From: an uncultured Methanosarcinales archaeon
GTDB lineage: Archaea > Nanobdellota > Nanobdellia > Woesearchaeales > ARS49
Assembly (NCBI GenBank): GCA_964445485.1
Contig: CAYUPS010000001.1
Span: 76,941-140,940, forward strand
DNA: 64,000 bases
Reading direction: 5' to 3'
Below are positions 9,681-63,985 of this stretch, piece by piece. Under the pieces are notes generated by a model. The model saw nothing but the letters and a program-made list of their open reading frames with translations. It had not been told where the DNA came from and did no database searches. The translations under genes and the position numbers were made by a program. Numbering within the stretch: position 1 is the stretch's first letter; every line of letters starts with the position of its first letter.

Positions 9681-9686
9681 TATCCC

Positions 9687-11741: not shown

Positions 11742-12410
11742 ATGGAACTCACCTGGCTCGGCGACTCCAGCATCCTCCTCCAAACACAAGGCACGACCAT
11801 CTACATCGACCCCGTCCCCCCGCTCGAAGGCTGGCCTCGCAGCATGCCCGCCGCAGACCTCATCCTCCTCTCCCACGACCACCCCACCCACTTCTCCCAC
11901 GCAGCCCTGCGGCAGCTGCGCAAAGACGGCACCGCAGTCTGGGGCGCAAAAGAAGTCGCCGCCCAACTCTACGGCTGCCTCCCCCTCAGTGAAGGCAGCC
12001 TCCTCGAATTCCGGCACATCCGCCTCCACGCCACCCCCGCCTACAACCCCACACCGCCCCGCTCAGGACCCCCCGGCATCAAGCTCACGCACGCGCGCGG
12101 CGATGCCATCGGCTTCCTGCTCGAACTCGAAGACAAACGCCTCTACTACGCAGGCGACATCGGCCTCATGCCGGAGCTGCGCCAACTCAGCTGCGACATC
12201 GCACTCCTACCAGTCGGCGGCACACTGACACTCCGCGCCAAAGACGCAGCGGACGCCGTCGAGCGGCTCGGCGCCCGCACCGCCATCCCCCTGCACTGGG
12301 GCGGCATCGAAGGGACACGCGATGACGCAGAGCTCTTCAAAGAGATCGTCGAAGACAAGAAACTCGCCACCGCCATCATCCCCGAGAGAAACCGGCCGAT
12401 CCATCTCTAG
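11742..12410 (+). CDS. metallo-beta-lactamase-fold hydrolase
   Basis: 222 aa; LSHDHPTHF metal-binding motif, later His/Asp ligands; AATTTTAAG ~28 nt upstream. Confidence 0.8.
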   Translation: MELTWLGDSSILLQTQGTTIYIDPVPPLEGWPRSMPAADLILLSHDHPTHFSHAALRQLRKDGTAVWGAKEVAAQLYGCLPLSEGSLLEFRHIRLHATPAYNPTPPRSGPPGIKLTHARGDAIGFLLELEDKRLYYAGDIGLMPELRQLSCDIALLPVGGTLTLRAKDAADAVERLGARTAIPLHWGGIEGTRDDAELFKEIVEDKKLATAIIPERNRPIHL

Positions 12411-15352
12411 GGCGAGATGCCCTGCAGCAGGATCGAGTGCAACGACGAATTCTTTGAAACACCGCTCTTCGCAGGGAAGAGCGACTCAGCGATGGACTCA
12501 TTCAGGACATCCGCCGGCGCACCCGAGCCATTCTTCACCATAGGCGGCAGGGCCACGTTAGCAGGAACGGAATTCTTCGCCGCAGACTGCCAGCCATGCA
12601 CCACTCGGTGCACCGTGATGCGCTGCGGCAGGCGCGCCTCGAACACCTTCTCGAACTGCGGCACGCTCTCCCCAGAGAACAGGCGCACGAGCGTCATGTC
12701 AAGAGCAGCATCATCGACCAGCGCGGACCAGTACGAGCCGTTCACATCCTTTATCACCAGCACGCTGAAATCTGATTTCGCATCAGCGTACTTGCGCACG
12801 CGCCGCACACCACCCTCCACCACCGCAAGCCCTGAGGGACGCAAGCCATTCTGCACCGCATCCATCGACGAGAGATTGACGAGGAAATTCGTGCACGCGA
12901 GAAGACCTGAGCCAGCAGACGAGCAGTACGCGACATTCGAGACATTGATGCCTGCCTCGCGGACGTGCGAATCCGCAAGCGAGAGAAGCTTCAGCCGCGC
13001 ATCAGACTCGCTCAGGTTGAACCTGCTCGAGAGCACACGAGTGGCGTTATCCATGTCCAACCCTGCCGTCGCCTCAATCATCGCGCCATCAACAAGCGAC
13101 CAGGAAGCGAGAGCCATCATCTGCGGCAGCTTCTGGAACGCATCCTCAGTAATCACGAGATACGCAGGCTGTGGCGAGCAGTCAGTCAGGTCTATCGCGC
13201 TCTGCGGCAAACCATTATCCCTCGCCATCGCTACTGCAGAGGAGCGGTTGATCGCCGCGCGCAGCAGCGTCGTCTCATCTCCGAATGCATCGAGCGCGGC
13301 ATGGATGGTGCCGCAATTCTCCATGCGCAGTATCGCCTCGCTCTCAACCAGAGATGTTGAGACCATCGCGCGCGGGAACCAGTAGGAGTGTGCATTGTCG
13401 AACGCAGCATTGTCCCACAGCGTCGCTTTGCCAGCCACCGCCTGCCACACATACCCCTCATCCCACCACGCATCGATGATCGCAGAACCATTGACCTCCC
13501 GTTCAAAGAAGAGTCCGACATCGGTGTGCGCGGCGGTCACCGCAGGCAGCATAGACGTCTGAGCCCAGTACGGAAGGAATGGAGGCAGGAATACCGAGAG
13601 TATGACTACTGCGACGACGCACTGCGTTCCCCAGCGGGGAAGCCTGAAATGCACTGCTGCAGGAATCCTGCAGAGCGCAGGCCACACTGCGTGCAGGCCG
13701 AGAGCGAAGAGGAATAGCGCGGGAGCCGCGAGGTAGAAGCTGAAGCGGCGGGCGAGAAGCGTCGCGATAAAGACAGGCACAAACCAGCATGCGGCCAGGA
13801 GGAGCGCGGGCGGAGGGGAGAGCCTGCGGAGTCCCCGATACGCGAGATACGCCAGCGTCGCCGCGAGAGAGAGCAGCATCACGTAGCCGCCGAGGAAATT
13901 GACAAGGACTGGGAAGGGCGTTCTCTGCAGCTCACTGATTGACCCGATGAGCGAAGGATAGACCGCATTGAGCGTGCGTCCCGTCAAGTACCACTCAGCC
14001 CGCTGAACGAACTGCGTTCCAAGCAGCCAGTACGCTGCGAGAGCGCATGCCGCAACAAAGCCGGCGAGCGTGCCATAACTCCAGCGTTCGCGGCGGAACA
14101 CCACCACGCGGAGTATCCTGAAAAATCCGAACACTGCAGCGAACATGCAGAGGACGATGAGGATATATGGCCACCCCTGCCAGATGTTGCTGAACACCCA
14201 TAGGCTCGCGGCGAACGCGACAGCATACGCCGCTCGCGGGCGCCATGAACACGCCGTGCAAGCACAGACTGCGAAGAGTACGGCAGCAATCGAGAGCATG
14301 ATCGCGGGACTCTGCGTATCGGTGTTACCCGCGAACGTGCCTAAGAAGAACAGCGGGTGTACTGCGAAAAGAACTCCCGCAATGCCCGCGATCGCCAATG
14401 AGCGAGTCAACCTGAGCACGAGCAGCACGAACAGCAGCGCAGCGAGAGTGCCGATGACTGCGGGGAGAAAGAACAGCGATTCGAGCAGAGTGGATGAGCT
14501 GGCCAACGCAACACCGAGCAACCCGTCAGATGCGTACCCCGCGCTTTGCCCGGCGAAACGATTGTTGAAGCGGTGGTAGGCAGCCAGTATCTTCGGCCAC
14601 CAGTTCAAATCGACAGAGACACCATAGGGCGCAATACGCAGCCAGTCATGCTTCCTGCCTGCGCTATCGATTGGCGCCTCCGACCCAGTCTCGACTATAT
14701 TGCGCGCCATGCGGTAGTACAGGTACGTATCCGCTTTGTAGAGGAACGGCTGTAGCGTGTCCGCTGACCCCTGAGCATAGAGCGATTTGAGCGATTCCAC
14801 ATCCTGCGCGACCCTCGCGGCGTACGCGGGCGACGCGCGCAGCTCGGCGAGGCGCGCATTCACCTCCCTCTCCAGACCCGCATCAGAGATGTACGGATAG
14901 GCTGCCTTGGTCTCCGCGATTGCCTGACGGACTGCATCGTTGTCGGCGAGAGCTGCAGCACGGGCATCCAACTGCGGAAGATATGCGGTTCGCGTGAGAG
15001 TCATCCATGCCGCGCCTCCGACAACCAAGAAGACAAGAACCAACGCCCACCACCGGAAGGCAGGACTGTCGCGCGCGCGTTGCTCCGGCGTATCGAGAGG
15101 GACCGTGGTGCTCGTCACCACAACATCAGTATCGTCTTCGCGCTCGCGCAGAATCTTGACAGGGCGAACAGCACGGGACTTGGCGAGATCGGTAGCTTTG
15201 GGCGCGTGACGCGTGACTGGCTTGACAGTCGCCTTATCAGGAGTCTCCCCGCTCGCCGCGCGCTCGGCAGGCGCTTCTTTCTCTTTCTCCTTGCGCTGCG
15301 CATCGAGAGTCTTGCCTATGTCAAGCGATGCGCCGAAGTCGAACTCTCTCAT
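12407..15352 (-). CDS. aglB: archaeal oligosaccharyltransferase AglB (STT3 family)
   Basis: Polytopic N-terminal half plus soluble C-terminal domain with WWDEGY (WWDYG-type) motif; first external loop KADTYLYYRMARN (DxYxYR). Track ORF extends to 15544 but overlaps divergent gene; ATG 15352 preferred, TATATAAA (15390-15397, minus orientation) upstream. Confidence 0.88.
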   Translation of the reverse strand: MREFDFGASLDIGKTLDAQRKEKEKEAPAERAASGETPDKATVKPVTRHAPKATDLAKSRAVRPVKILREREDDTDVVVTSTTVPLDTPEQRARDSPAFRWWALVLVFLVVGGAAWMTLTRTAYLPQLDARAAALADNDAVRQAIAETKAAYPYISDAGLEREVNARLAELRASPAYAARVAQDVESLKSLYAQGSADTLQPFLYKADTYLYYRMARNIVETGSEAPIDSAGRKHDWLRIAPYGVSVDLNWWPKILAAYHRFNNRFAGQSAGYASDGLLGVALASSSTLLESLFFLPAVIGTLAALLFVLLVLRLTRSLAIAGIAGVLFAVHPLFFLGTFAGNTDTQSPAIMLSIAAVLFAVCACTACSWRPRAAYAVAFAASLWVFSNIWQGWPYILIVLCMFAAVFGFFRILRVVVFRRERWSYGTLAGFVAACALAAYWLLGTQFVQRAEWYLTGRTLNAVYPSLIGSISELQRTPFPVLVNFLGGYVMLLSLAATLAYLAYRGLRRLSPPPALLLAACWFVPVFIATLLARRFSFYLAAPALFLFALGLHAVWPALCRIPAAVHFRLPRWGTQCVVAVVILSVFLPPFLPYWAQTSMLPAVTAAHTDVGLFFEREVNGSAIIDAWWDEGYVWQAVAGKATLWDNAAFDNAHSYWFPRAMVSTSLVESEAILRMENCGTIHAALDAFGDETTLLRAAINRSSAVAMARDNGLPQSAIDLTDCSPQPAYLVITEDAFQKLPQMMALASWSLVDGAMIEATAGLDMDNATRVLSSRFNLSESDARLKLLSLADSHVREAGINVSNVAYCSSAGSGLLACTNFLVNLSSMDAVQNGLRPSGLAVVEGGVRRVRKYADAKSDFSVLVIKDVNGSYWSALVDDAALDMTLVRLFSGESVPQFEKVFEARLPQRITVHRVVHGWQSAAKNSVPANVALPPMVKNGSGAPADVLNESIAESLFPAKSGVSKNSSLHSILLQGISP

Positions 15353-15387
15353 GCCCAAAAACCCCTGGCGCGGGCAGACGCCAGCAA

Positions 15388-15422
15388 CTATATAAACATT
15401 AGCAAGGCTAATTTTATATACG
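15388..15422. promoter_or_regulatory. back-to-back TATA boxes (TATATAAA 15390-15397 for aglB, TTTTATATAC 15413-15422 for epimerase)
   Basis: 90-bp divergent intergenic region 15353-15443. Confidence 0.55.
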
Positions 15423-15443
15423 AACCCTCGCAGGAGCATCCGC

Positions 15444-16388
15444 ATGCGATACCTTGTAACCGGCGGCGCCGGCTTCATCGGCAGCCATGTCTGCGAAGCG
15501 CTGCTGGCGCGCGGAGACCATGTGACCTGCGTCGATGATTTCAATGATTATTACGACCCGGCCGCCAAAGAGCGCAACATACAGACTAGCCTGCAGTCCC
15601 CCCGATTCATTGTCTGCCGCGACAGCATCACGGACTTTGGCGCCATGCAGCGGGTATTTCAGCGAGAGACACCCGAGAGAGTCATCCATCTCGCTGCGCG
15701 TGCAGGCGTCAGGCCCTCCATCAGCCAGCCATTGCTGTATTCGCACGTGAACATCACAGGCACGCTGAACCTGCTGGAGCTCGCGGCGCAGCAAGGCATC
15801 CAGAATTTCGTCTTTGCCTCCAGCTCATCGGTCTACGGCGAGCGCAACAGCGTCCCTTTCAAAGAGACCGATCCCGTGGACAACCCTATCAGCCCGTACG
15901 CCGCGACGAAAAAATCTGGCGAGCTGCTCTGCCACGTATATTCGCGCCTGCACAACCTTCCCTGCTCGTGCCTGCGGTTCTTCACAGTGTACGGACCGCG
16001 TGGCAGACCCGACATGGCACCGTACAAGTTCACAAGGGCAGTCATGGAAGGCCAGCAAATCGAGATGTACGGCGATGGATCGACGCTGCGGGACTACACG
16101 TACGTCGATGACATCGTCGCAGGGGTCATCGCCGCCGCGGACAAACCTCACGCATACGAGATATTCAACCTCGGCAATTCCAGCCCAGTCACGCTCAAAG
16201 ACTTCATCGCGACCATCGAGAAAGTCGCAGGAGCGCAGGCACGGATTGTCCAGAAGCCGCTGCAGCAAGGGGACGTATCCAAGACATACGCAGACACGAG
16301 CAAGGCGCAGCGCATGCTCTCCTGGCAGCCAAGCACCCCGCTCGAAGAGGGACTGCGCCGCACGCATGCCTGGCTGCAGCACCCCTAG
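15444..16388 (+). CDS. NAD-dependent nucleotide-sugar epimerase (UDP-glucuronate 4-epimerase-like, extended SDR)
   Basis: 314 aa; VTGGAGFIGSH Rossmann, FNDYYD signature typical of UDP-GlcA 4-epimerases, YAATK catalytic motif; TTTTATATAC 27 nt upstream. Confidence 0.85.
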   Translation: MRYLVTGGAGFIGSHVCEALLARGDHVTCVDDFNDYYDPAAKERNIQTSLQSPRFIVCRDSITDFGAMQRVFQRETPERVIHLAARAGVRPSISQPLLYSHVNITGTLNLLELAAQQGIQNFVFASSSSVYGERNSVPFKETDPVDNPISPYAATKKSGELLCHVYSRLHNLPCSCLRFFTVYGPRGRPDMAPYKFTRAVMEGQQIEMYGDGSTLRDYTYVDDIVAGVIAAADKPHAYEIFNLGNSSPVTLKDFIATIEKVAGAQARIVQKPLQQGDVSKTYADTSKAQRMLSWQPSTPLEEGLRRTHAWLQHP

Positions 16389-22910: not shown

Positions 22911-22988
22911 GCCACCCGTCGTGCGCGTGAGAATTTAAAGCTGCCCGTTGCGAAGACTTATAAGTAGCCACGGAGAGGGAAGACATCC

Positions 22989-26249: not shown

Positions 26250-26341
26250 GCACCACGCAGCACGGGACGGCTTATAAACCTGCATCGGCGGTCCGCGCGC
26301 GTTAGCTTATTAACCTCCGGCGGATTGCGCAGCGCACACCC

Positions 26342-31595: not shown

Positions 31596-31620
31596 AAACT
31601 CTCTCTGATGAGCGCAGGTC

Positions 31621-32628
31621 ATGCCCGCTCTGCTCACGTACGCGAATATCGCGCTCTCGTTCTTCGCGACGCTCCTCGTGCTGCCGTACTGGATCAGGCG
31701 CGCGAGAGAGCACGGTTTTGTCGGGACTGACATGCAGAAGCTCGACAAGCCGAAAGTCGCGGAGATGGGAGGCATCTGCGCGGTCTTGGGCATCATCGTC
31801 GGTCTGCTCACATATGTCGGCCTGCAGGTCTTCATCTATCATAGCTTCAATCCCGTGCTGTTCCAGCTGGCGGCGACGACGAGCGTGCTCATCGCGTGCA
31901 TGATCGGCCTGATCGACAACCTGCTGGGCTGGAAGATCGGGCTGCGCCAGTACCAGAAGGTGCTGCTGACGCTGCTCATCCCAATCCCGCTCATGGTCGT
32001 GAACGCGGGCGAGCATATCATGACACTGCCGCTCGTCGGGAACATCGATTTCGGCATCATCTATCCTCTTCTTATCATCCCGCTCGGCATCATCGGCGCG
32101 TCGAACGCGTTCAACATGCTCGCAGGCATGAACGGCCTCGAGGCGGGGCAGGGCATGCTGATCCTCGGCACGCTGGGATATATCGCGTGGGGGACGGGGC
32201 ACTCGCCGGCGGCATTGATCGCCGCGTGCGCTGTCGCTGCGCTGCTCGCGTTCTGGCTCTTCAACCGCTATCCTGCAAGGGTGTTCCCTGGCGATCCGCT
32301 CACGTACAGCGTGGGCACCATCATCGCGATTGTCGCCATCTTGGGCAACATGGAGAAGTTCGCGCTCATCCTGTTCATCCCGTACTTCGTCGAGTTCGTG
32401 CTGAAATTGCGCGGGGATTTCAAGAAGGAGAGCTTCGCGCGCGTGCGGCATGACGGGGCTCTGGAGAACCAGCATGCGCAGTGGTACTCGCTGACGCACG
32501 TGGCCGTGTCATTCCTGCGACGCGTCAAGGGGTCGGCGTATGAGCAGCAGGTGGTGTGGGCGATCCATCTCGCGCAGGCATTGCTGTGCATCATCGTGCT
32601 CTTCCTCTACCAACCGCCGATCGCCTGA
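31621..32628 (+). CDS. aglH: UDP-GlcNAc:dolichyl-phosphate GlcNAc-1-phosphate transferase (AglH / GPT, MraY-WecA family)
   Basis: 335 aa polytopic; NAFNMLAGMNGLEAG motif of polyprenyl-phosphate hexose-1-P transferases. Confidence 0.85.
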   Translation: MPALLTYANIALSFFATLLVLPYWIRRAREHGFVGTDMQKLDKPKVAEMGGICAVLGIIVGLLTYVGLQVFIYHSFNPVLFQLAATTSVLIACMIGLIDNLLGWKIGLRQYQKVLLTLLIPIPLMVVNAGEHIMTLPLVGNIDFGIIYPLLIIPLGIIGASNAFNMLAGMNGLEAGQGMLILGTLGYIAWGTGHSPAALIAACAVAALLAFWLFNRYPARVFPGDPLTYSVGTIIAIVAILGNMEKFALILFIPYFVEFVLKLRGDFKKESFARVRHDGALENQHAQWYSLTHVAVSFLRRVKGSAYEQQVVWAIHLAQALLCIIVLFLYQPPIA

Positions 32629-32632
32629 GCAT

Positions 32633-33463
32633 ATGCGCGTCCATGTCTTCGGCAGCGGCATCATCGCCCAGGGATTCTCGCGAGGATTGCTGCGGCGGGA
32701 CCATGTCATGTCTGCATCGGATACGCCAACGCATGATGCGCGGGAGGTGTGGGACGCTCTCGGCGGAGCGCGGCTCGACACCGTGCTCGATTGCTCGGAG
32801 CTGCGCGATGCGTACGCGTGCGAGCGCGGTCCGCAGGAAGCGTTCGCGCGCAACGTCCTCGGCCCGCTGACACTCGCAGAGTACTGCGCAGAGACGGGCA
32901 TATCCCTGACGCGGGTCACGAGCGGGCACATCTATGAGGGAGACGTGTGCGGCTGGCCGCATGGCGAAGCCGCGGTGCCGACGTATTGCAAGAGTGTGCA
33001 CAGCCGCACGGTCGCGATGGCGCAGCAGCTCCTGCCAACGGATGCGCTGCAACTTCGCATCGGATCGATCGTCATGGGCGAGCGCCATCCGGAGAATCTG
33101 CTGACGCATCTCGCGGACTGCGGGTATGGCGGAATCGTGCCGGAGAGCGTGATCACGCTCGATGATCTGGTGCGGACCGGGATCACGCTCATCACGCAGA
33201 GGGCAACGGGCGCGTACAACGTGGCCAATCCCGGCGGGATGTCTGAGAAGGATATCATGCAGGAATACCGCCGCCTGGTCGATCCGGCGGCGCGTTTTGA
33301 GGCGCTCAATCCCGTCGGCATCGGGTATGCGAATCCGCTGCGGACGTATTGCGTGCTGGGGACGGAGAAGCTGGAGGCAGCGCGCATCGTTTTGCCTTGC
33401 GCGCGCGATGCGGTGCGGGAGTGCTGCGAGGATTACTTCTTGGGGCTCCTGTCAGGGACGTAG
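32633..33463 (+). CDS. RmlD-like NAD(P)-dependent sugar-nucleotide reductase/epimerase (tentative)
   Basis: ATG 32633 within track ORF 32540; atypical Rossmann VFGSGIIAQGF; RmlD-like length and position in glycan cluster. Confidence 0.45.
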   Translation: MRVHVFGSGIIAQGFSRGLLRRDHVMSASDTPTHDAREVWDALGGARLDTVLDCSELRDAYACERGPQEAFARNVLGPLTLAEYCAETGISLTRVTSGHIYEGDVCGWPHGEAAVPTYCKSVHSRTVAMAQQLLPTDALQLRIGSIVMGERHPENLLTHLADCGYGGIVPESVITLDDLVRTGITLITQRATGAYNVANPGGMSEKDIMQEYRRLVDPAARFEALNPVGIGYANPLRTYCVLGTEKLEAARIVLPCARDAVRECCEDYFLGLLSGT

Positions 33464-33714
33464 CGGATGCTGACGTCCTCATCGCAGAACGCTTCCTCTT
33501 CGTCCGCGGTGCCTGTGACGATGCGCCAGAGCGCCCTGCCGACGCTCGCGAGGCGCGATGTCTCTTCGGCGTGGTTGCGCATGACCCCTGGCGATAGCAT
33601 ATGGATGACCCCGTATCGTCGGTGGGCAAGGGGATATTTAACCATTCTGTCGAGAAAATCACGGAATCGCTCACGGGCGTAAGCTTTATAATAGGTCTTC
33701 GGATAGCGCGGCGC

Positions 33715-41769: not shown

Positions 41770-42087
41770 TTATACCCTTCGTATCTTCGTCTCTCGCTTG
41801 TGCGGCTCCATCATCACCAGGAGCCTCTTGAAATCCTCGTCGCTGATGCCCGACCGGCCCGTCTGGACCAGCTGGACGACCAGCGCGAGCGCCCGTACTG
41901 CCTTTTCCGGGTGCGCGATCTTGATTGTGGTGTACCGTGCGAACGCCTCAGGAGAGAGGTGGGTGCGGCAGAACGCCTCGAGCCTCGCGAGCTCATCGGC
42001 GACATCTGTCGACTCAGTCTCCTGCGCCTTCTGCTGCAGCGCGGCGAGCTTGCGTCGCCGAACCGCGTCGATATCGTCCATGCTCAC
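41770..42087 (-). CDS. PDCD5/TFAR19-like dsDNA-binding protein
   Basis: 105 aa; IRRRKLAALQQK... LSPEAFARYTTIKIAHPEKA...LVQTGR pattern of archaeal PDCD5-like proteins; ATGA overlap with S19e. Confidence 0.8.
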   Translation of the reverse strand: MSMDDIDAVRRRKLAALQQKAQETESTDVADELARLEAFCRTHLSPEAFARYTTIKIAHPEKAVRALALVVQLVQTGRSGISDEDFKRLLVMMEPHKRETKIRRV

Positions 42088-42812
42088 TGAGCCGCCGGTG
42101 CTTCCGGCGTGTCAGCGGCCGCAGGGGCCGGAGCCTCTGCGCCCTCGGCCTCTTTCTTTTGCGCCGCCTTCTTGCGCGGGGCGCGCGGTTTCTTGGCCTC
42201 GGGAGCGGCACCGTCTGCAGCGGCGGCCTTGGGGGCCGCGGGCTTGCGGGGTGCGCGCGCTTTCTTGGGTTTCTCGACTTCGATGATCTTGAGTTCTGCG
42301 GTGGGGCGGGCGGGGATGGTGACGTTGTGCGTCTTCATCAGTTCGTCCGCCTGCTTGCTCAGGAACGCGACGCCCTTGCCGGTCGCGACGCGGCCCTTGT
42401 TGAGCGCGTTCTTGGACTGCTGGGCGAGGCCTGCCTTCTCGAGCTGCTGGAGGATCTTGCGGAGGATGTTGCCTGAGGACTTGACGAACATGTTGGGCTC
42501 GACGCCGCGGCGCTTCCTGCCGCCGTACTTGTTTCGCAGTTTCGCGACGCCGACGGGGCCGCACTTGGCGAGACGGTAGAGGATGCTCGCGGCGCGCGTG
42601 TACCACCAGTCCGCTTGCGCGGGCGGGCGTTCGCGGCTGATGCCTGTCTTGACGAACGTGGCCCAGGCGGGGGGCTGGATGCTCTTGTCCGCCTTGAGGG
42701 CTTGCGCTGTCTTGTTGATCAGTTCCTGCGGGGGGACGTCGTAGATACCCATTGTGCGTTGTTCCTTCTGTATGCCGCCTTGCGGCGGACGACGGGCGCG
42801 TGCGGCGCCCAT
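42084..42812 (-). CDS. rps19e: 30S ribosomal protein S19e with ~95-aa Lys/Ala/Pro-rich C-terminal extension
   Basis: Core MGIYDVPPQELINKTAQALKADKSIQPPAWATFVKTGISRERPP...WWYTRAASILYRL matches S19e (in-frame alternative ATG at 42752); CTTTTTAAAC TATA (minus orientation ~42840-42850) ~33 nt upstream of 42812. Confidence 0.85.
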   Translation of the reverse strand: MGAARARRPPQGGIQKEQRTMGIYDVPPQELINKTAQALKADKSIQPPAWATFVKTGISRERPPAQADWWYTRAASILYRLAKCGPVGVAKLRNKYGGRKRRGVEPNMFVKSSGNILRKILQQLEKAGLAQQSKNALNKGRVATGKGVAFLSKQADELMKTHNVTIPARPTAELKIIEVEKPKKARAPRKPAAPKAAAADGAAPEAKKPRAPRKKAAQKKEAEGAEAPAPAAADTPEAPAAQ

Positions 42813-42851: not shown

Positions 42852-43286
42852 TTACTGCCTGCGGAGGGAAGCGACCGACGGCACCGTGATCCATGCAGCC
42901 ATCATGCCAAAGCCCCTTTTGTCGATGCGGAACGGCGGGACGCGCTGCGCATCGCGCAGGAAGACGAGGATGCAATACTTCTTCCCCGCGGCCCACCGGA
43001 GATCCTCGCGACTGCCCGGAGACAAACAGATCGCGTCGCCATACGTCTCGATGATGCCGCGCACTTTCGCCTCATCGAGCGCGTCAAAGAAGAGGACGCG
43101 GCTCACTGTCGCACGGGCAGTCACCGGTTCGCCCGCATCCTTGAAATACACGCGCTCACCGGGGGAGATTGAGTTGTACGGCGGCCGGCGCGTCACGTAC
43201 CAGCGCGATTCTATGGTCTTCTCGCCAGAGAGAATCTTGTCGAGCAGCTTGCGCTTCTTGTCGAGGAATGCGATGTGCTCACGCAT
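42852..43286 (-). CDS. ASCH (PUA-like) domain protein
   Basis: 144 aa; MREHIAFLDKKRKLLDKILSGEKTIESRW typical ASCH N-terminus. Confidence 0.75.
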   Translation of the reverse strand: MREHIAFLDKKRKLLDKILSGEKTIESRWYVTRRPPYNSISPGERVYFKDAGEPVTARATVSRVLFFDALDEAKVRGIIETYGDAICLSPGSREDLRWAAGKKYCILVFLRDAQRVPPFRIDKRGFGMMAAWITVPSVASLRRQ

Positions 43287-43319
43287 GTGTCCGTGCGAGA
43301 GGAGAGGGTATAAGAAACT

Positions 43320-43511
43320 TCAGGCGGAGTCTTCTGCGGGAGCGCGCCTGCCCTCGAGGAAGCCGCTGTCGATCCTGCCGCCGCGGCGCAACCGAGCGCG
43401 CTCGAGGCCCACGGCATGCCTGCAGTCGACGCACCATTTGCGCATGCGCGAGAACGACTTGATGGTCATGCCGCAACGGAGGCATTTGGCGCGAGAACGT
43501 GCAGGTACCAT
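43320..43511 (-). CDS. 63-aa CxxC-x13-CxxC zinc-ribbon protein, identity uncertain (weak S27e-like pattern)
   Basis: MVPARSRAKCLRCGMTIKSFSRMRKWCVDCRH...; CTTAATATAC (minus orientation of 43536-43545) ~27 nt upstream of ATG 43511; Arg-rich, could be spurious in GC-rich DNA. Confidence 0.35.
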   Translation of the reverse strand: MVPARSRAKCLRCGMTIKSFSRMRKWCVDCRHAVGLERARLRRGGRIDSGFLEGRRAPAEDSA

Positions 43512-43599
43512 GACGCGCGCCGGAGTGCGCGAGCCGTATATTAAGATGCAGGAGCGCGCGCATCAACATTTTTATACCCTGCGCGGCTCGCACAGCACC

Positions 43600-52139: not shown

Positions 52140-52814
52140 TCAGCCAAGATCGATCGCGACCCGCGCGACGAGCGGTGGCCAATCATCAGCCGCGGCGTCC
52201 TGGACGGCGATGACAAAGGTTGTCTCGCCATAAGGCATGATGTCGATGTCCGCGTCAGGGCGTGCGATGCTTGAGAAATCAAGCAGGTATGTCGTCGCGA
52301 TGCCTTTGGCGACGCTGTCCGCGATGCCCATGATGCGTCCGAACGGGGCGTTGATCGTGGCTGAGGCGGAGCGCAAGGCCTGCGGCACTGCGCCGCCCGT
52401 GACGCTCGCCGTGATACTCACCGTTTCCGCACCCAGCGAGACTGTCGCTTGGGAGGGGGCATAGGCCAGGTCCATCAGGTCCATGCCTGCGACGCTGTCG
52501 ATGCAGGTCTTGAGCGCGGCGCCCGCATACCGTCTCAGTTCCGACTCCATGAACTGCTGCGAGGGCGCGACGCGGGCGCGGTTGCGGTAGTGGAACGCCA
52601 CCGTCGCACGCTCAGCGTAGAGCGCGTCACCGTGGCCGTAGATGAAGCCGCCGTTGCGCGCGAGCGTGTGCACGCCGGCTCGCATGGCATGCGCAAAACA
52701 TGAGGACACTTGATTGGTCGCGCTCGCCTGCGCGATCGCAATCCATGCGACGCTCGCGACAACCGCCGCAACTATTATGATGAGCATGATGAGCTTCATG
52801 GCGGGGGTTTTCAT
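52140..52814 (-). CDS. signal-peptide hypothetical protein translationally coupled to the giant protein
   Basis: ATG 52814 (M19 of track ORF) overlaps giant-gene stop (ATGA); N-term MKTPAMKLIMLIIIVAAVVASVAWIAIAQASA; no domain recognised. Confidence 0.6.
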   Translation of the reverse strand: MKTPAMKLIMLIIIVAAVVASVAWIAIAQASATNQVSSCFAHAMRAGVHTLARNGGFIYGHGDALYAERATVAFHYRNRARVAPSQQFMESELRRYAGAALKTCIDSVAGMDLMDLAYAPSQATVSLGAETVSITASVTGGAVPQALRSASATINAPFGRIMGIADSVAKGIATTYLLDFSSIARPDADIDIMPYGETTFVIAVQDAAADDWPPLVARVAIDLG

Positions 52815-55800
52815 GGTGCGCCTCCGACGGGAACGGGCGGTGCTGCGACGGGCTGTGCCCAGCGCCACGTGACCTCGTAATCATCCCGATACTTCCAGGG
52901 GTTGGCGATGTTGCGCTGGAAGAAACCCTTTCCGTTGGCGCTCTCTCCCGAGAAGTAATCCTTGCCTGCCTTCTCGAGCTCATCGAGGTAGCCGGCGCTG
53001 CCTTGGGCGGCATCCAAGATGTACCTGCGGCCGTTGCGGATGTATTCGGCCCATTGATGGCCTGCCGCATCGACGATCGTGGAGAGGCCCTTGCGCAAGT
53101 AGCCGCGGTTGATCGCTTCCGAAATGATGTGCGCGATAATCGGGGCTTGGTGCCTGCAGACGCCTCCGACGCCGATGCAGGAAGAGCCGATATCGATGAA
53201 TTCTGTCGAAGCCTCGCCGAGATACTTGCCCAGCCCTGAGCTGTACGGAACCCTGCGGGTGACGAGAGCGTTGACACCGCTGAGGATCTCCTCCTCGATC
53301 TGCGCCTGTGTCGCGCCGGACGCTTTCATCTCGCTCGTGAGCTTGCCCATGGCCTCCATGACCTCGTCAGTCAGGGGTTTGAGCGATTTCGGATCGATGA
53401 CCTGCAGTTCGGTCGAAGGATTGACGATGACTTGCAAAGCGCCGCCGATGGGCTTTCCCGGTCTCGTGGCTGGCACGTTGCCTTCCAGGAAGGACTCTTG
53501 GATGTCGGGGCGGGTCACCATCTCGGAGCCGAAGTCCTGCTTGGAGATGCGTTTCGCGCGATCGCGCAGACCCCATCCCATCGGCAGTTCTTCGATGAGC
53601 GAATCCACGTTCTCGCCGCGGGATGCCGCCCGCTCGAGATTGGCGAGATTCTGGAGATCTTCAGCATCCACCGAGCCCGCACCGTAATACCTGTTCAGGT
53701 CGTCGGCGTACATGCGCAATTGGGTATACGTACGGGCATCGGAAACATCCGGGAGTTTCGGCAGGATCTCCACCAGGTCCTCTTCGGCTTCGATGACGGC
53801 CGCGCGTTCTGCTTTGGCGAGAGACGCGGCCGCATCGACTTCGCGCAGTGCGTTCTGCACAACGCCCGAGTCAGCGGTGATGCCTCTCGCCCTGAGCGCC
53901 TCTTCGATCGCGCCGGACGTGTGCGTCTTGATGCCCTTGAGCGCTTCGGAGACCTCGTCGACGCTCTTGCCGAGCTTGCTCGCCAGGTTCTTCGCATACG
54001 CCTCGGCAATGGATGATTTGGTGAACGTGCGCATGGCGCCGGGCAAGCCAGCGCCGGCGAGGATGCCCGTAGCCATAGTGACTGTCGGGTTGTCCGTGCC
54101 GATGCCGCTGAAGGTCAGGATGGCGCCGGTCGCGGCATCGATCATGACTGATTCCGCCATGCCCGCGAGCGCGCCGCCAAAGCCCGTCGCGCCGGTGAAG
54201 CTCATGCCCGCGCCGCCGGTGAGGAGCGCGAGGGCGATCGCGCCGGGGCTCGCAGCGTCGTCGACGAAATCGGCGACTTTGGCCAGGTCACTGATGACTG
54301 AATCGGGGAGCGAGCTCATGGCGATGCTGGAGATCATGTTGCTCGGGAGGAAGGGTGACGGACCGCTCATGCCTGCAAGGTAGCCGAGGAATTTGCGGTC
54401 GCGCTCGGTGCGCAGCGCGTTGACGCTGTCCTCATCAAGCATCTCCTGCATGCCGATGTCGACTTCCCAGAGGACGTCGTTCGACTTGAACTCGCCCGGG
54501 GAGGAGCTGACCGCTTCCTTGCCGATGAGTTTGCGGATGTCTCCGCTGTAGGGACTGTCATAATACGTCTTGCGGGCGTCCTCGCGCGCTTCGGCGAGGA
54601 ACTCCTTGAGCGGGTAGAGCTGTCCGGGATCGAGCTTGTACTGGCCGTCCGTGATCGGGGCCATGTCGCCGATGGGCTTGCTGCCGTCGTTGCCGTGGCC
54701 TGATCTGATGAGCATGTCGCGCGCCATGCGGTCGTCATCCTTGCTGTTGAGCCAGCGCTCTATCTGCTCCGCAGACATGCCCGTCTGCTTGAGGGCCTGG
54801 AGCGCGTACATGCCTCGCGAGTATGCCTTGCCTTCGGCGCTGAGCGTCTCGGCCGCCTTCTTGACCTCCTCGAAACCGCCGGCGACATTGACGGCATCCT
54901 TGAGGAAGCCGCCGTTGAAGAGGCCGTTGAAGATGACCGCGCCGGCTTTCGCGACGCCTGCGGGGATGGTGAGACTCCCGCTGCGGCCTTGGAATGTCAT
55001 GCGGATGTCCTGGTAGTCATCGCCGACCGCTTCGCTCATTCGGTCGGAATAGCCTTCTGTGCTGTCACGCAGCGCATCGAGCCGCTGCTCCTTCGCGTAC
55101 AACTGGCCTTGGAGCTTGCTGAAGCCGCTCGCGCCGATCGCGTCGCGGTCGTTCTTGACCGAGTCTCCTGCCATGCTCAGGAGGCCGAGCTGCTCATCCA
55201 GGGCGTCCGCGCGCTCGAGCAGGCGTTCGCGCTCCTCGATGCTGAGACCGGACGATGCGAGCTGCCTGTCGATATCAGCAAGTTGGCGTTGCAGGGCGTC
55301 GCCCGCCGCCTTGATCTCGCCGATCAGGTTGTCCGTGACCGCGAGAGCATCGCCGACCTTGCCGTGCGAGGCGTACCAGCTCGCGAGCTCGCGTGAGAGC
55401 GTGATCTTCTTGGATGAGATGCCGTTCGCGCTCGCGCCGCCAGTGTACTCGCGCTTGACGGCGACGCCCTCGCCCGTGCGCTCGAGGGTCGTCTCGGCGA
55501 GACGCAGGCGGGCGCGCAGGGAATTCTCGACGATGCTGCGATCAGGCGCGACTTCGCCGGGCGTGTCCGCGTACCTCTGTTTCGCGTTCTCATAATGGAT
55601 GCGGTTGGCGAGCTGGGCGTCGAGCAATGCGGCGGTCCCTGCCGCAGTATTGCCTTGCGCGCCGCCGATCATGCTGGAGAGGCTCTTCTCGAGGCTGTCG
55701 ATGTTGCCTGACTGCCAGAAGCTGCTGAGCAGGGGGTCGTTGTCCATGCGCCGTTTGCTCTCGTCGAATTTCTGCTGGATGAACTTGCGGCGCTCTTCGC

Positions 55801-58800
55801 GCTGGGCCGCGGGCACGCCTTGGCTGCCGTCGGCGGAGACTTCCCAGTCGAGCGGCAGGTTCTCGGCGTTGCGCTGCACGAACGAGTTGCGCAGCGCGTT
55901 GGCCCAGACCCTGTCGATGGAGCCTGCGCCGAATGCGCCGTCGATGAACGCCTCGACCTCAGTCATCGCCTGGATGTGCGCTTCGTAACGCTTGATCGAT
56001 CCGTCGGCGGAGGTGATTGTGTTCTTCTTGGCGATGAGTTCGTAGAGCTTCTGGAGCGCGGCGGCGATGAGTTCGGGGCGATCGTGGTTGCGGATCATCT
56101 GGCGGATCGCTTCCTTGAGCGATTCGATGTCATTGCCGACAAGGGCCTTGGCGTCCGCGGGCGAGGCGACATGGACATCCTTGTTGCCTTCGGCCGGCGA
56201 TGAGTAGGTCTGCGAGAGATCGCTCGCGATTGTCAGCGTCGGGCCTCCTGTGCCGTCCTTGATAGCCTGCGGCTTGTTCTCGACGCGGTCGCTGCCGGTC
56301 TCGCCGGCGATCGCCGCGAGCGAGGTGGCATCCTCCTTGATGCGCTGGCCCGTCGGCGAATTCGTGACGGAGACGGCGAGCTGCGTGCCAACCTGCTTGT
56401 GGGCGAAATTGTCGCTGTCCGAGCGGGCGTCGACACCGATGCTGAACTGCGCAGTGGTGATCTCCGAGGCCGGATTGCCGATGGAGAACACCTCATTGGT
56501 GTCGCCGTCGGGCGATGACGTGCGGTGGAGGAGGGCACCATTGTTGGCGGTGTAGGCGATTGTGTTGGTGACAAGCGATGCAGTCATCGCGTAGAGCACA
56601 AGGTCGTGCGTGATCTTGTCGCCGACCATCTTGATGAATCCTGCGTTCGGCGAGCCGAGCGCGGACACGGACATGCCGAGCGCGCCACCGCCGATGTTCA
56701 GGCTCGTCGTGCCGCTCTCGACCTTCGCGTAGAGGGCGTCATCGGAATAGCCGACAGTGTTGCCGCTCGTTTCGAGGGCGGAGGAGACCGCTTGGCCTTC
56801 CGGGACGAACTTGACAGGCGCGGTAGACGTGAGCTCCAGCTGGTTCTTCTCATCGGTGTAGGCGGCGGCTTGGCCGGGAGCGGGCGTCTTTGGCGCGGGA
56901 GCGGAGCTCTGGGAGTCATCGCTGGAGGCTTTGGGCGGGGAGAGCGTCTTGCCGGCGTCTTCAAAGGATTGCGGCACGTGGCCGCCGCGGCTGCCTGTCA
57001 GTCCTTCGAAGAGTCCGAGGATTCCGTGGAGCATGCGTGTCGGGCTGTTGAGGTTCTCGAGTTCCAACAGGAAGCCTTTCTCGAACCATCCGCGGTTCTT
57101 GTCGTACGTGCTCTTGGCAGGGTTTTCCTTGTTGTTCCACCAGTCGCCCAGCGCGCCCCAACCCGCATCCCACGTGCTCGTTTTGGGCCAGGGGTTCTTG
57201 TCCTGCGCTTCGTATCCCGAGACGCCGACGCTGCCTTTGTCCGTCGTTGCGTCTACCCGTGTTTTCACTCCCTTGGTGCCGTCTTGCGTGAGGGTGAGTG
57301 TCAGGTCCTTGATGCTGTCGGCACTCTTGAATGCAGGGTCGTTGCGCAGGGCTTCCAATGCGTTGCGCAGCACGGTCTTGAGCCATTGCGCTTGTTCAGG
57401 GCTGAGCCCCTTGATGGGGCAGCCCAGCAGCTTGTCGAGCAGGCTCATGTCCAGGGTGTCGATCGCGTGTTTGAGGAGGCGCCTGATCGCATCGCCGCCT
57501 TTCGCATCAGGCGGTATGCCGATGCTGATCTTTGTCTCGCCTTCGCTGCCGTCGATGCGCAACTTGAACGGTTCCTTGAGGATGCTCTTGCCGTCCTTGC
57601 CCTTGAGGCCGATGGACGCTTCAAGCGCATAGGACGGGCCGCTCACGCGGTTCTCGCCCCAGACCGCACCCGGTTCAAAGACGGACGGCTTGGTGAGCGA
57701 CACCTTCAGGTCCTTGACATCAATAGAGATACCGGCGCCCGAAGTAGATTCGCAGGGGTCTTTGGGCTTCGCAGGAGCCTCTGGCGGCGTGGACGGAACG
57801 ATCTTGTCGAGCGCGTCACCTGCGCTCATGCCGCCGTTGTAGACCATGCCGTAGGAGAGTCCGAGGAGGTTGAAGACGTTGCGGACGATGGTGCCCGTGG
57901 TGGGTTTTTGGGACTGCTCTTCGAGCCAGCCGTTCGCGACGCTCTCTATATAGGATTCGGCGGCGCTGCTCGGGTCGCCGTCTGTCTTGATGTCCGCGCC
58001 GGCCGTTCCTTTGCCGGTGAAGGATGCAGGCAAGCCTTTGGGCGTGCGGCCGTTGACGGTGACTGTCACGTCCATCGAGCCGGGCGGCGTGCCGGGCTTG
58101 GGTTCGGGCTGGTCCTTGAGCTCGAGGTGGATGCTGTCGAGCGATTCGAGGCGTTTGAGGTCTGAGCCGAGGAGGGCGCGCAGGGGCTCGGAGAATATCT
58201 CCTTGAGCTTGTCCCGCATCTCGGGCTTCATGCCGGGGATGTCGTTGAGCGCGTCGAGGACGGAGTCGATGTGCGTGCGCAGGCCGTCCATGAGCGCCCG
58301 CTTGAATCCTTCGCTGACGAGGTCGGCGAAACCGGTCTTGTCGAAGTTGGGGAACTTGATGTCGATGGTGAGGACGCCCTTGCAGGACTTGAGCACGATC
58401 TCGATCGGGTGCTTCTCGATCTGCTCGCGGATGGTCTGCTTGCTCAGGAACTTGGCGAGCGGGTGCTCGTAGGGGAGGCGGCGCAGGAGCTCGTGCAGGT
58501 GCACGTTCGCGCGCAGGTTGTAGCAGTCGTCAGGTGTGCTCTCCATCTTCCATTGTATCTTGCGGTCGAATTCGCCCTCGTACTGGTAGTCTTCCTTGCC
58601 GTCGTAGGGTTTCTTGTCGACCTGGAGGTTGCTGCCGATGCGGTAGTCGCGGTGGTTCTCTGTCGGTCCTGCGCGGATGTGCACATCGAAGGGCTCTTCG
58701 CTGGGCGTCGAGCCGTCGCGGGGGATCATCTGCACGACGGTGCCGCCGGCATCGGTGGGGTTGCCGCGGGGGTTGTCCTCATCGGTGATGGTGGGAACGT

Positions 58801-61800
58801 GCCTGAGCTCGATGTCGCGGCCGCCTTTGCTGATCGAGCCCTTGACAAGGCCTCCTTGGCGTCCGATGTAGTTGTCGACGCCGTCTGCGTACACGGTGCG
58901 GTCGCCGCCGGGGCCGTAGTGCGTGCGGATGTATTCTGCGATTGCGGCTTCGAGCTTCTCGAAACGCTCATGCTCTTCGGACGAGGTGCCTTTGCCGGCT
59001 TTCTTGCCGTACTGCTTGGCCATGGTCTCGAGGCCTGCGAGCTGGTATTGCAGGCGGCCTTCGCGCGATTCCGCCTCATTTGACGGCTGCGATGAGGGCC
59101 AGGGGAATCCTTCGGGCGGCAGTGCCTTATTGAAGAGCGGCGTGGTGCTGCCGCCGTCGAAGCCGGGGGTGTAATGCCTGAGGAGGTCCTTCTTGAGATC
59201 CTTGGCGATCTTCTCGAAATCGTCTGAGCGGCTCTGGACGAGTCCCTTGTTGGTCTGCAGTCCCTTGAGCTCTTCCTGGAGCCTCTCGCGCTCGGCGCCC
59301 TGCGCGGTGCGCAACTGATCCTTGATCTTCGCGATGCGCTCGTCGTATTCCTTGACGATCTTGTCGCGCTCGGCCTTCCTCGCGGGGTCGTTCTCCTGCT
59401 CGGCGATGCGTGCGGCATCGGCGACGGCGCGCATCCACACCTGCATGTCGCGGGCGAAGTCCTTCTTGTACGCGCTGAGCGCTTTGTCCCAGCGGCGCTG
59501 TGCCTCATCGTTCGCGACCGACGTCACGGTGTAGTCGGAGTCGCCGTTGATGATGATGGTGGTTCCCGGCATGGCCTTGATCGTGACGTCTTCGCCGTCC
59601 GAGCCCTTGATCGTGACCGATGACGAGCCGTCCGATTCCGTGGTGGTTTTCACGATTTCGGGGTTGTACCCGTCGGCGAGCTTGATGTTCTGGGGCAGGT
59701 CGATGCATTTGCCGTCCTTGCACGCGTCCTTGCACGCAGTCTTCTTGGTCTGCCCGCACCAGAGCGGAGTGATGAGGTTGCGCGTCCCCTTCTCGCAGGA
59801 TGGCGCGGCAGGCTTCTCGCAGCATCTGGCTTCGGTGCTCGTGACCTGCTGGCATCCCCAGGGGCAGGTCTCTTTATAGTAGGTCTCGGGATCGACTGTC
59901 GGTGCTTGCGGCGGCGGGCAACCCGCGTAGAGCCGCTTCTGCCAGATCTCAGGCTCATCTCCGAGGCCGTGGATCTGGCCCGGGCCGTACTTGGTCGGCA
60001 CGAAGAGGTTCTTGCCCGCGTACGGCTCAGTGCCGGTCGGGGTCTTGAGGTCCTGTGTCGGCCTCCAGTTGGATTGCGTGCCCCTTGTTTGCAGCGTGGG
60101 CTGCGTGCAGTACGTGGTGTACTTCTTGCAGTCATCCTGCGAGAGCCTGCACTCGTCGAATGTCATCTTGCAGTCGGAGCCGCAGCCGAGCGGTCCGATG
60201 CTGCCTTTGGTGTTCGGCGGGTTGGGCACGTCCTTGCAGCGCAGGGTCGGGGGGCGGAAGACGGGTTTGCCGTCCTTGGTGTCGCACTCCTCCGTCTCTT
60301 TGTCGTCATTGGGCGCCTGCACGATGCCGTCGCCGCAGTATTCCTTGGGGACGCACTTGTTGGATTGGCATTTCTTGGCAGAATCCGAGCAGTCGGAATC
60401 CTTGACGCACTCGAAGCAGCCGCTCGTGTCGATCGTGCACTGGCCCGCAGCGCCCGCAGGCCTGCAGGTGAGCTCGCCGGCGCCGCGTATCGGTTTTTCC
60501 CCGAACGTCCTGCCGAAGCATGTCTCGCTGCCGAAGTCCTTGCCGTCGCATTCTTCGCCGGACTGTTTCTTGCCGTCGCCGCACACGGATTTCTCTGACG
60601 TGCAGCCGCGCTTGTCGAAGAGGCAGGTGAAGCTGTCGCAGCCGAGCTGGCCTCCCTTGAAGACGGGATCGACGGACGCGCAGTCGTAGCCGTCGAGCAT
60701 CGGCTTGCCGTCCCTGCCGATTTCGCACTCTTCCGTCTTGCCCTGGTCATTGGGTTTCTGTATCACGTAATCGCCGCACTTGGTCTTGGGCACGCACTTC
60801 TCATTGACGCATTTCTCTTCGGCCGAGCAGTCTTCTTCATGGCCGTCGCGGCATTCCTTGCATCCGCTCACATCGAACTGGCACTCCTTCGCGTCACCCT
60901 TGGGGAAGCAGCCGAGGTCTCCGTGGGGTTTGCCGGCAGCGGTGGAGCAAGTCTGACCGCCCAGGTCATTGCCGTCGCAGCTCTCGGGCCGCTCGCGGAC
61001 GCCGTTGCCGCACGTGTGCGTCTCAGACGCAGCCATTTCGCAGTTGATCGTGCTGTAGACGCAGTCAGGACCTATCTTCTTGCACAGGAGCGTTCCCCCC
61101 ACATACAGGGGGTTGACGTCCTTGCATGTCTTGCTGCCGACATTGCTTGGCAGTTCGCATTCCTCCTTGCCGCCATCGTCATTCTTCGCTTGTATGTTCC
61201 CGTCGCCGCAGTAGGTCTTCTTCTTGCACGCGCCGCCGTCGCATTTGCACGTGCCGTCTTCGCAGCCCTCGGAGTAATAGCAGTCTTCCGCGATCTGGCA
61301 CTGGGAGCATCCGGCATCGTCGATGCGGCACTGTGACGCCGAGCCTTTCGGATGGCACTTGAGCGTGCCGAAGGGGCGCAGTTTGCCCGTCTTCTCCGTA
61401 ACAGTCCTGCAGTTCGCGCCGTTGAAGTCCTGGCCGTCGCAGTGCTCTCCGGCGTCGACCTTGAAGTTGCCGCACGCCGCAGGATCCGCGGGGGGCAGCG
61501 TGCAGGCGCTCGTGTCGTAGACGCAGCTCACGCCGACCTTCTTGCACTTGAGCGTGCCGCCGGTGAAGACTGAATCGACTTGGGAGCAGGTCTTGCTGCC
61601 GATCTTGTCCGGCAATTCGCACACTTCTGTCCCTCCTTCGGTGTTCTTCGGCTGGATCTCACCGTCGCCGCAGGAGGTCTTCTTCTCGCACTTGCCATAT
61701 GCCCTGTCGCAGAAGTGCCCGCTGTCGCAGTCTGCGTCAGAATCGCACTCATAGCAGGGGTTGGTGTTGTACTGGCAGGGCGTCGCAGCGGTCTTGTCGT

Positions 61801-63985: not shown

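Follow-up and report, generated by a model that had tools for sequence, protein, structure and literature searches.

A giant surface protein of a Woesearchaeota-like archaeon ends in a DPANN protein cassette with interchangeable enzyme tails

To our knowledge, almost no candidate effectors are known from DPANN archaea outside the nanohaloarchaea, and much remains to be learned about how the ultra-small DPANN episymbionts bind and influence their hosts. Two kinds of described systems come closest to the locus analysed here. The SPEARE-type giant proteins of nanohaloarchaea are defined by a C-terminal VirB4/TraG-like ATPase, an adjacent gene of the VirB4 family and an ectodomain of Ig-like or beta-propeller type (PMC10266531). 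The polymorphic toxins of bacteria, such as CdiA, Rhs and MafB, are large exported proteins with swappable C-terminal enzymes (Zhang et al., 2012, PMC3482391). Here we describe a gene on a 64,000-nucleotide stretch of the archaeal contig CAYUPS010000001.1 (hereafter the window, meaning the whole stretch at its full length), whose product is a giant surface protein of 5,237 amino acids (aa). Its C-terminal 1,200 residues belong to a previously undescribed DPANN family with interchangeable enzymes. Judged from its sequence, the giant appears to work like a polymorphic effector or a SPEARE-type giant, yet it is a member of neither group.

Like the SPEARE giants, ours belongs to a DPANN host, exceeds 5,000 aa in length, carries an N-terminal signal for export or anchoring and a huge ectodomain, and has hydrophobic segments close to its C-terminus, where it ends in an enzyme; a role in host attachment or manipulation has been proposed for those giants (PMC10266531). 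In contrast to them, the ectodomain of our giant is made of cysteine repeats and its tail is a Cys-His-Asp domain, and no sequence similarity between the two was detected. Membership was rejected, as the giant has no match to a VirB4/TraG ATPase, an Ig-like domain or a beta-propeller, and no VirB4 gene adjoins it, its neighbours coding for small membrane proteins. With polymorphic toxins the giant and its relatives share the plan of a large exported protein whose N-terminal and central part is conserved and whose C-terminal enzymes are swappable; one family member carries a Hint domain, and the transglutaminase-like (TGase-like) domain that ends the giant also occurs as a small stand-alone open reading frame (ORF). 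Unlike polymorphic toxins, they have no recognised trafficking domains, a variable immunity gene does not lie next to them, they belong to an archaeal setting with a conserved membrane-anchored partner, and the family carries regulatory cargo (PP2C, kinase, J-domain, RelA/SpoT) in place of nucleases or deaminases.

Within the window, the giant gene is a minus-strand ORF of 3,724 codons and a TGA stop (52811..63985) that runs for 11.2 kb without interruption. No in-frame stop occurs in the 15 bases that separate its first ATG from the window edge, and the gene is therefore cut off there. The complete product, P0001, was found among 5.8 billion proteins searched; it is 5,237 aa long and forms a singleton cluster from a 194,476-bp NCBI contig. 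The original prediction, made from the letters of the window, had allowed that the N-terminus might lie beyond the window, and P0001 indeed adds 1,513 residues, including a strong hydrophobic anchor at full-length aa 24-42 (Kyte-Doolittle hydrophobicity 2.85). Residue numbers given below are those of the window unless stated otherwise; window residue n is residue n + 1513 of P0001. From its N-terminus, the full-length protein consists of the anchor, Cys-rich repeats of disulfide type that span ~3,000 aa, an orphan region of ~1,000 aa and a cassette of ~1,200 aa (Table 1). Being Cys-rich, it is of an extracellular type, and together with the membrane anchor this supports the giant surface protein that had been predicted.

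Table 1. Coordinates of the features discussed in the text; aa numbers of the giant are those of its window-encoded part
Feature	Position in window	Strand	Remarks
AglB/STT3 oligosaccharyltransferase	12407..15544	-	context for N-glycosylation of exported proteins
Paralogous membrane-anchored Cys-repeat protein, ~970 aa	47668..50580	-	TIGR02232 24.7 bits (cut-off 20.8)
Membrane-anchored protein P0007, 186 aa	51537..52097	-	one CGNGKLDPGEVCDG repeat; next same-strand gene
Partner gene, 224 aa	52140..52814	-	N-terminal membrane helix; ATG overlaps the TGA of the giant (ATGA); GGAGG upstream
Giant gene, 3' 71%	52811..64000	-	window aa 1-3724 = full-length aa 1514-5237; TGA 52813-52811
Transglutaminase/papain-like (EDR1/BTLCP-like) Cys-His-Asp domain	52871..53398	-	aa 3530-3705
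Predicted catalytic Asp3658 codon (ILDAAQ)	53012..53014	-	end of model strand 124-129
Predicted catalytic His3643 codon (GHQW)	53057..53059	-	start of model strand 114-121
Predicted catalytic Cys3610 codon (GVCRHQ)	53156..53158	-	N-terminus of model helix 81-97
Gly/Ala-rich hydrophobic module	54023..54268	-	aa 3240-3321
Conserved helical core	54416..56413	-	aa 2525-3190; common to DPANN signal-peptide proteins of 1,100-2,140 aa
Family signature TYYDSPYSGDIRKLIG	54521..54568	-	aa 3140-3155; consensus YxSxxYGxDIxKLIG
Orphan region, nearly Cys-free	56414..59650	-	aa 1446-2524; charged helical stretch aa ~1500-1600
Cys-rich disulfide-type ectodomain zone	59651..63289	-	aa 233-1445, ~10% Cys
Four tandem super-repeats, 144-155 aa	60137..61927	-	aa 687-1283; A module then B module

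The cassette (aa ~2525-3724) starts with a helical core, followed by a Gly/Ala-rich hydrophobic module and an enzyme tail that varies. With the last 1,199 aa of the giant as query, an exhaustive HMMER search provided 47 representative homologs that we mapped by domain; core and module (aa ~2525-3400) recur, in unchanged order, in proteins of 1,100-2,140 aa. Alone, the cassette forms proteins of 1,100-2,140 aa with a Sec signal, the named members of which are from Nanoarchaeota and Ca. Woesearchaeota; a scan of genome contigs yielded one relative and a scan of metagenomes two. All members with a complete N-terminus except P0039 begin with a hydrophobic, signal-peptide-like segment, and the Cys content of the family is 0-0.7%. 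We define the family by the motif YxSxxYGxDIxKLIG, the series FVDDGLSP...TGGxGG...AENxxIDAATG...PEExP, an export signal, and a near absence of Cys and of N-x-S/T. The giant carries every family motif (TYYDSPYSGDIRKLIG, FVDDAASP and AESVMIDAATG) along with an N-terminal anchor, and it differs from the family by its ~4,000-aa N-terminal Cys-rich extension.

Enzyme tails invariably lie C-terminal to the module, and they vary between members: a TGase-like domain in the giant, P0019, P0020 and P0025; SpoIIE/PP2C in P0022 and P0034; a J-domain with its HPD intact in P0018 and P0049; RelA_SpoT in P0030; a Hint module starting with CFLADTKIL in P0013; a kinase-like domain together with EDR1 in P0027; and an HExxH motif in L001/P0016. 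Profile searches of the PDB found no sequence relative of the cassette family as a whole, nor of its module. The literature that we covered, which is incomplete and leaves novelty unproven, held no description of the family, of its partner gene or of sequon avoidance in DPANN archaea. Two large signal-peptide proteins of Ca. Woesearchaeota type, P0028 and P0037, have only the TGase-like tail in common with the family and carry a divergent Gly-rich hydrophobic stretch, with a kinase-like motif in P0037. Since both are free of N-x-S/T sequons (0 against 8.8 expected in P0028 and 12.0 in P0037) and have this stretch, the cassette as defined here probably covers only part of a wider superfamily. 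At the metagenomic locus of another relative (L003), the family gene is split: an ORF with the module and tail (9719-13021) overlaps one with the signal-peptide N-terminal part (8490-9746), for which a frameshift, an assembly error and a genuine split are the candidate explanations.

The enzyme tail of the giant had been predicted to hold the ordered Cys, His and Asp of a transglutaminase/papain-like core, and all three motifs were located and are conserved in homologs. The Transglut_core hidden Markov model, which had been suggested as a check, gave no match to the translation even at E<=10. At that threshold no Pfam or NCBIfam model matched the enzyme tail, whether searched with the whole protein or with its last 275 or 165 aa, and Pfam and NCBIfam searches with the whole protein and with ten segments of it yielded nothing significant. 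A phmmer search with the last 275 aa found no PDB match, and PDB sequence searches with the alignment profiles A2, A4 and A6 found no significant one. Homologs of the last ~200 aa include C-terminal parts of large DPANN proteins (P0019, P0020, P0025, P0028, P0032, P0037, P0039 and P0047) and many stand-alone proteins of ~250 aa, the three organism-named of which come from the candidate phyla radiation (CPR; Woesebacteria and Microgenomates). In alignment A3, which comprises the giant and 41 homologs, C81 and H114 do not vary, and at least 90% of the sequences have D129; in alignment A2, D129 is invariant. One stand-alone homolog of 133 aa, P0036, has Gly for the catalytic Cys and Asn for the His, and is likely an inactive or regulatory paralog.

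Profile comparison and a predicted structure support the assignment of the giant's tail to the transglutaminase/papain-like superfamily, at the level of the superfamily only. Among 23 family members, matches to known models are weak and all point to families within a single superfamily: EDR1_CTR1_ARMC3 peptidase-like (EDR1) in four (best E 0.0094), DUF553 in three and Transglut_core in two (best E 0.0011). The tail of P0027 lies above the Pfam cut-offs for both EDR1 (35.4, cut-off 27) and Transglut_core (25.4, cut-off 23), and hhalign matched A3 to it (probability 97.8%, E 6.7e-13) with GVCRH, HxW and the Asp aligned. A single-sequence AlphaFold model of the last 275 aa was unusable, with a predicted local distance difference test (pLDDT) of 45, and was replaced by an AlphaFold2 model based on the A3 multiple alignment (pLDDT 79.7, predicted template modelling score 0.77). 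In this model Cys81 opens a helix, and His114 and Asp129 sit on neighbouring strands. Foldseek placed LapG on top with a probability of 0.95-0.99, at an E-value of only 0.02.

The tail shares the ordered Cys-His-Asp and the placement of these residues on helix and strands with EDR1 (PF14381), LapG (C93), Transglut_core (PF01841), Legionella Ceg10 and arylamine N-acetyltransferases. EDR1 domains have been described as close to C71 pseudomurein endoisopeptidases and C93 peptidases and as frequently joined to kinases (PMC10318531), and such a kinase fusion recurs among the giant's relatives. Unlike these enzymes, the tails form a family of their own, with the signature GGVCRHQA...GGHAW...ILDxAQ and an N-terminal helical sub-domain, and the folds nearest to the giant's tail mix a protease (LapG) with an acetyltransferase, the intracellular Cys-His-Asp enzyme Ceg10 (PMC12773746). 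The tail adds an unannotated branch to the transglutaminase/EDR1-like superfamily, held in common with the ~250-aa stand-alone proteins, the named ones among which are from CPR.

A second property of the family is the avoidance of N-x-S/T sequons (x not Pro). The giant has 216 Asn and 732 Ser or Thr and not one sequon, against 28.2±5.0 expected from 1,000 shuffles, the lowest of which still had 12. Together, 26 family proteins have 39 sequons where 260 are expected. In the regions after the module there are 4 (three of them in P0027) against 65.5 expected, with a Poisson P of 3e-23, or of 1e-15 against a background ratio of 0.71, which is the ratio of observed to expected sequons in 120 Woesearchaeota-type arginyl-tRNA synthetases (ArgRS). 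The regions before the module have 27 against 118 expected, and P0025 and P0019, in their N-terminal 225-460 aa, account for 23 of these 27. The stand-alone ~250-aa homologs have 41 against 44 expected. Control motifs in the family (S/T-x-N, D-x-S/T, N-x-D/E, K-x-S/T, H-x-S/T, N-x-A/G and Q-x-S/T) have ratios of 0.74-1.18. Neighbours at the same loci are not depleted (11 against 6.5 expected in a secreted 796-aa protein, 6 against 3.6 in MetRS), and the same holds for other proteins of the window (10 against 3.8 in AglB, 2 against 1.7 in ArgRS). The ~970-aa Cys-repeat paralog of the window has none, with 4.3 expected.

With the AglB encoded in the window, the organism is able to N-glycosylate the proteins that it exports, and this gives the avoidance of sequons its meaning. 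An oligosaccharyltransferase meets exported polypeptides only, and so the simplest reading of the counts is that the entire sequon-free zone, including the enzyme tail, would be exported and would have to stay free of glycans. The lack of N-x-S/T together with near-zero Cys, despite AglB, offers a signature with which archaeal genomes could be mined for exported proteins that have to stay glycan-free.

Between the Cys-rich zone and the enzyme tail, the original prediction had seen a heptad-like coiled-coil stalk of ~2000 aa. This was not supported: a crude heptad scan of aa 1500-3500 found ~270 aa of heptad-like sequence in five short patches with no long continuous periodicity. The supposed stalk is made of three parts, namely the orphan stretch, the conserved helical core and the Gly/Ala-rich hydrophobic module, the last of which the prediction had not mentioned. 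For the orphan region (aa 1446-2524), a word-indexed search found no homolog outside the giant; the exhaustive search did not cover this region. The module begins with FVDD and continues with a first segment, a second segment with a conserved E and D, an acidic loop and a third segment that is followed by R/K. Its three segments are candidate membrane-spanning or membrane-inserting segments, and their hydrophobicity in the giant is moderate (Kyte-Doolittle 1.3-1.4). A phage tape-measure or conjugation protein was also considered for the Gly-rich module and was rejected, given the archaeal housekeeping context in which no phage or plasmid genes were seen.

Next to the giant lies a partner gene whose homologs accompany family genes elsewhere. 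In L002 (6462-7178; E 1e-12) and L003 (7265-8488; 38% identity over 71 aa, E 4e-13) the homolog is directly upstream of the family gene, with a 4-nt overlap in L002; in L001 (7701-9818; E 1e-8 to the L002 copy) it lies two genes downstream. Direct BLASTP between the window partner and the 705-aa protein of L001 was negative, and the link between the two is a transitive one, by way of L002 and L003. All copies have two Cys and a GG pair in common. Those of L001, L002 and L003 start with M..K(K/R)GQ(V/I)T(I/L)F and a hydrophobic helix, which we take to resemble the class III (prepilin-type) signal of archaea; the motif is missing from the window copy.

We tentatively favour the reading that the giant is an effector tethered by an adhesin, whose enzyme would end up in the cytoplasm of a host, as suggested by domain logic and by the sequon and Cys statistics. 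The Cys-rich ectodomain would tether the small cell to the surface of a host or neighbour, and the cassette, free of Cys and sequons, would be exported without glycans. The hydrophobic module would then enter the membrane of the partner cell and put the C-terminal enzyme into its cytoplasm, where it might modify a target via a thioester on Cys3610, by peptidase, acyltransferase or transglutaminase/deamidase chemistry. The co-translated partner protein would probably aid assembly or anchoring. The tail enzymes of the family need a cytoplasm, because they require ATP, Hsp70 or phosphoproteins, yet they seem to be exported, and delivery into the cytoplasm of another cell would reconcile both. The original prediction had left open an adhesin or a polymorphic-toxin-like effector; our evidence favours the second alternative, which is still a deduction. 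On this reading, the locus would supply a widely distributed candidate effector family with recognisable enzymatic cargo and a conserved partner gene.

More speculatively, Woesearchaeota- and Nanoarchaeota-type DPANN archaea may own self-translocating, polymorphic 'harpoon' effectors, a class not described before, in which a Sec-exported helical core with a Gly-zipper hydrophobic module would carry interchangeable regulatory enzymes, among them Cys-His-Asp modifiers, PP2C, kinases, J-domains and RelA/SpoT, into the host cytoplasm, assisted by the small membrane partner. If so, the absence of sequons and Cys would mark archaeal proteins that cross a second membrane, and the giant would be the adhesin-fused extreme.

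Several points weigh against delivery into another cell, for which the case is made only by the domain logic and statistics given above. The tail of P0027 is not depleted in sequons, and the giant's own post-module tail, with ~1.3-2 expected, is too short to test their loss. The module, at its hydrophobicity, might simply anchor the protein through three ordinary helices in the cell's own membrane, and its positive-inside pattern fits either membrane. The Cys-rich part of the giant cannot itself be threaded through a membrane. Among the four loci, no variable immunity-like gene follows the family genes, which are flanked by housekeeping genes; the giant is followed by its conserved partner gene, and downstream of the family gene in L002 there are tiny ORFs only, then GNAT and HisRS. 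Pfam searches of the giant and 24 relatives recognised no toxin-trafficking or secretion domain, such as Rhs, LXG, FHA-type TPS or PT-TG, except the one Hint. Finally, the C-terminal enzyme of SPEARE-type DPANN giants has been interpreted as lying on the cytosolic side of the giants' own cells (PMC10266531).

The main alternative, although we consider it unlikely, is a resident adhesin or receptor, in which the anchor and the three segments sit in the cell's own membrane, a 4,700-aa ectodomain binds or senses the partner, and the tail enzymes signal in the cell's own cytoplasm. The lack of immunity-like neighbours at the four loci fits this topology, as does the reading of the nanohaloarchaeal giants with their ATPase facing the cytosol (PMC10266531). 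The acidic flanks before segment 1 and after segment 2 (FVDD and DPEEHP) and the R/K after segment 3 agree with a C-terminus on the inside; PP2C/SpoIIE, FHA, kinase and RelA/SpoT domains are typical signalling outputs; and the stand-alone TGase-like homologs mostly have no signal peptide and lie among housekeeping genes. However, a cytoplasmic tail needs no sequon avoidance, and the post-module regions have 4 sequons against 65.5 expected, with normal counts in the cytoplasmic and secreted neighbours at the same loci. Near-zero Cys and a Hint domain are also more typical of released or translocated cargo. If the resident receptor were nevertheless true, the giant would define a new DPANN architecture for signalling from surface to cytoplasm.

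It is improbable, in our view, that the whole protein is outside the cell and the Cys-His-Asp domain is instead an extracellular enzyme head that acts on envelope proteins, either by cutting or cross-linking the host wall or S-layer, in the manner of the C71 enzymes PeiW and PeiP, or by processing or releasing the adhesin itself, in the manner of LapG and LapA. Sequon avoidance is compatible with such an exported tail, and a similarity of EDR1 to C71 pseudomurein endoisopeptidases and to C93 peptidases has been reported (PMC10318531). Yet the J-domain, PP2C, kinase-like and RelA/SpoT tails of the relatives depend on cofactors or partners from a cytoplasm, modules for binding Ca or the wall were not detected, and Ceg10, which is the other best match by fold, acts as an acetyltransferase inside cells (PMC12773746).

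The single open minus-strand frame that had been predicted is borne out by its translation, by its codon composition and by the statistics of stops. GC content at third codon positions is uniform along the frame, at 0.75-0.90 in each block of 250 codons; the other two frames of the minus strand contain 53 and 73 stops; and the probability of no stop across 3,724 codons is 4e-45, on which grounds a chance ORF was rejected. High-GC DNA does yield many spurious long ORFs on both strands, P0001 is a singleton cluster on one contig and the relative at L003 is broken into two ORFs, but an artefact, whether by chance or by genes fused through assembly or frameshift errors, is very hard to reconcile with these statistics, with independent homologs of three separate regions, whose order matches that in relatives, and with translational coupling to a conserved partner gene.

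Turning to the ectodomain, Cys makes up ~10% of aa 233-1427 and is nearly absent beyond, where four Cys in aa 1428-3600 are followed by Cys3603 and Cys3610; the last 2,200 aa hold 7. Upstream of the window, the full-length protein has ~1,360 more Cys-rich residues with 13% Cys. These include, at full-length aa ~1135-1360, at least four near-identical tandem repeats of 45 aa (CGCTPKTCAQLGKNCGSVSNGCGGTLNCGSC...GGGGTANV) of CGCTPKTC type. Two alternating types of Cys-rich modules had been predicted, and motif positions and the alignment of super-repeats agree with this. The A motif, CGN...E.CD, is found at aa 351, 416, 689, 838, 992 and 1135, and the B motif, CGDG.IQ, at aa 772, 926, 1070 and 1217. 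Each super-repeat consists of an A module (CGNxxxDxxExCDG...) and then a B module (CGDGxIQxxN...ExCE); the super-repeats are 38-45% identical among themselves, and their Cys framework is invariant.

The likeness of these repeats to TIGR02232/DUF4215, also predicted, stood in part. A CGNGxxDxGExCDDG-like motif and regular Cys spacing are shared, and the neighbouring ~970-aa paralog, two genes farther along, passes TIGR02232. Unlike that paralog, the giant stays below both curated cut-offs: aa 290-700 score 19.3 bits with TIGR02232 (cut-off 20.8, E 7e-4), close to the cut-off, and 15.3 with DUF4215 (PF13948; cut-off 27), and the regular array at aa 680-1300 matches neither model. Its repeats also differ in being arranged as a two-module super-repeat of 150 aa. 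The only non-self relatives of the Cys-rich region are repeat proteins of ~2,170 aa with 24-37% identity, one of them labelled as a protein of a Proteobacteria metagenome-assembled genome, and these match no other part of the giant. As for the paralog, its called ORF (47668-50697, minus strand, 1,009 aa) starts within the gene for tRNA-Arg(TCG) (50615-50688, minus strand), and translation probably starts at the Met at 50580, which makes a protein of ~970 aa that has a membrane helix.

Genes in the window for Alba, ribosomal protein S19e, NOG1, ArgRS, the oligosaccharyltransferase AglB/STT3 and a cluster of glycosyltransferases mark the host as archaeal. Its DNA has a GC content of ~62%. The ArgRS is 52-58% identical to proteins of Ca. 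Woesearchaeota and Nanoarchaeota, 58% being the maximum to any other protein, and all but two of the organism-named matches among the top 120 are from Ca. Woesearchaeota, Nanoarchaeota or Nanoarchaeia. By these sequences the host is a divergent, Woesearchaeota-like DPANN archaeon, and the DPANN-type host of the original prediction is supported by the relatives of ArgRS along with Alba, S19e, NOG1 and AglB. Around positions ~22000-33500 lie GT4 and GT1 glycosyltransferases, a flippase-like Polysacc_synt gene, a UDP-glucose dehydrogenase and a methyltransferase; with AglB, this cluster is an N-glycosylation or surface-glycan island of a small-genome archaeon.

Some smaller features of the window are worth recording. 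The ArgRS ORF (42886-45273, plus strand) was called with 795 aa, compared with 587 aa for the database product P0110; its N-terminal extension is probably for the most part a start-codon artefact, because Pfam domains begin at aa 239. The S19e ORF (42084-42812, minus strand) has 242 aa, of which only aa 23-160 form the S19e domain, and carries a C-terminal extension of ~80 aa. A protein with YdeI/OmdA and DUF1905 domains (50802-51368, plus strand) is encoded between two tRNA genes, and tRNA-Pro(TGG) is located at 51455-51525 on the plus strand. The gene for the chromatin protein Alba (45574-45894, plus strand) adjoins that for ArgRS.

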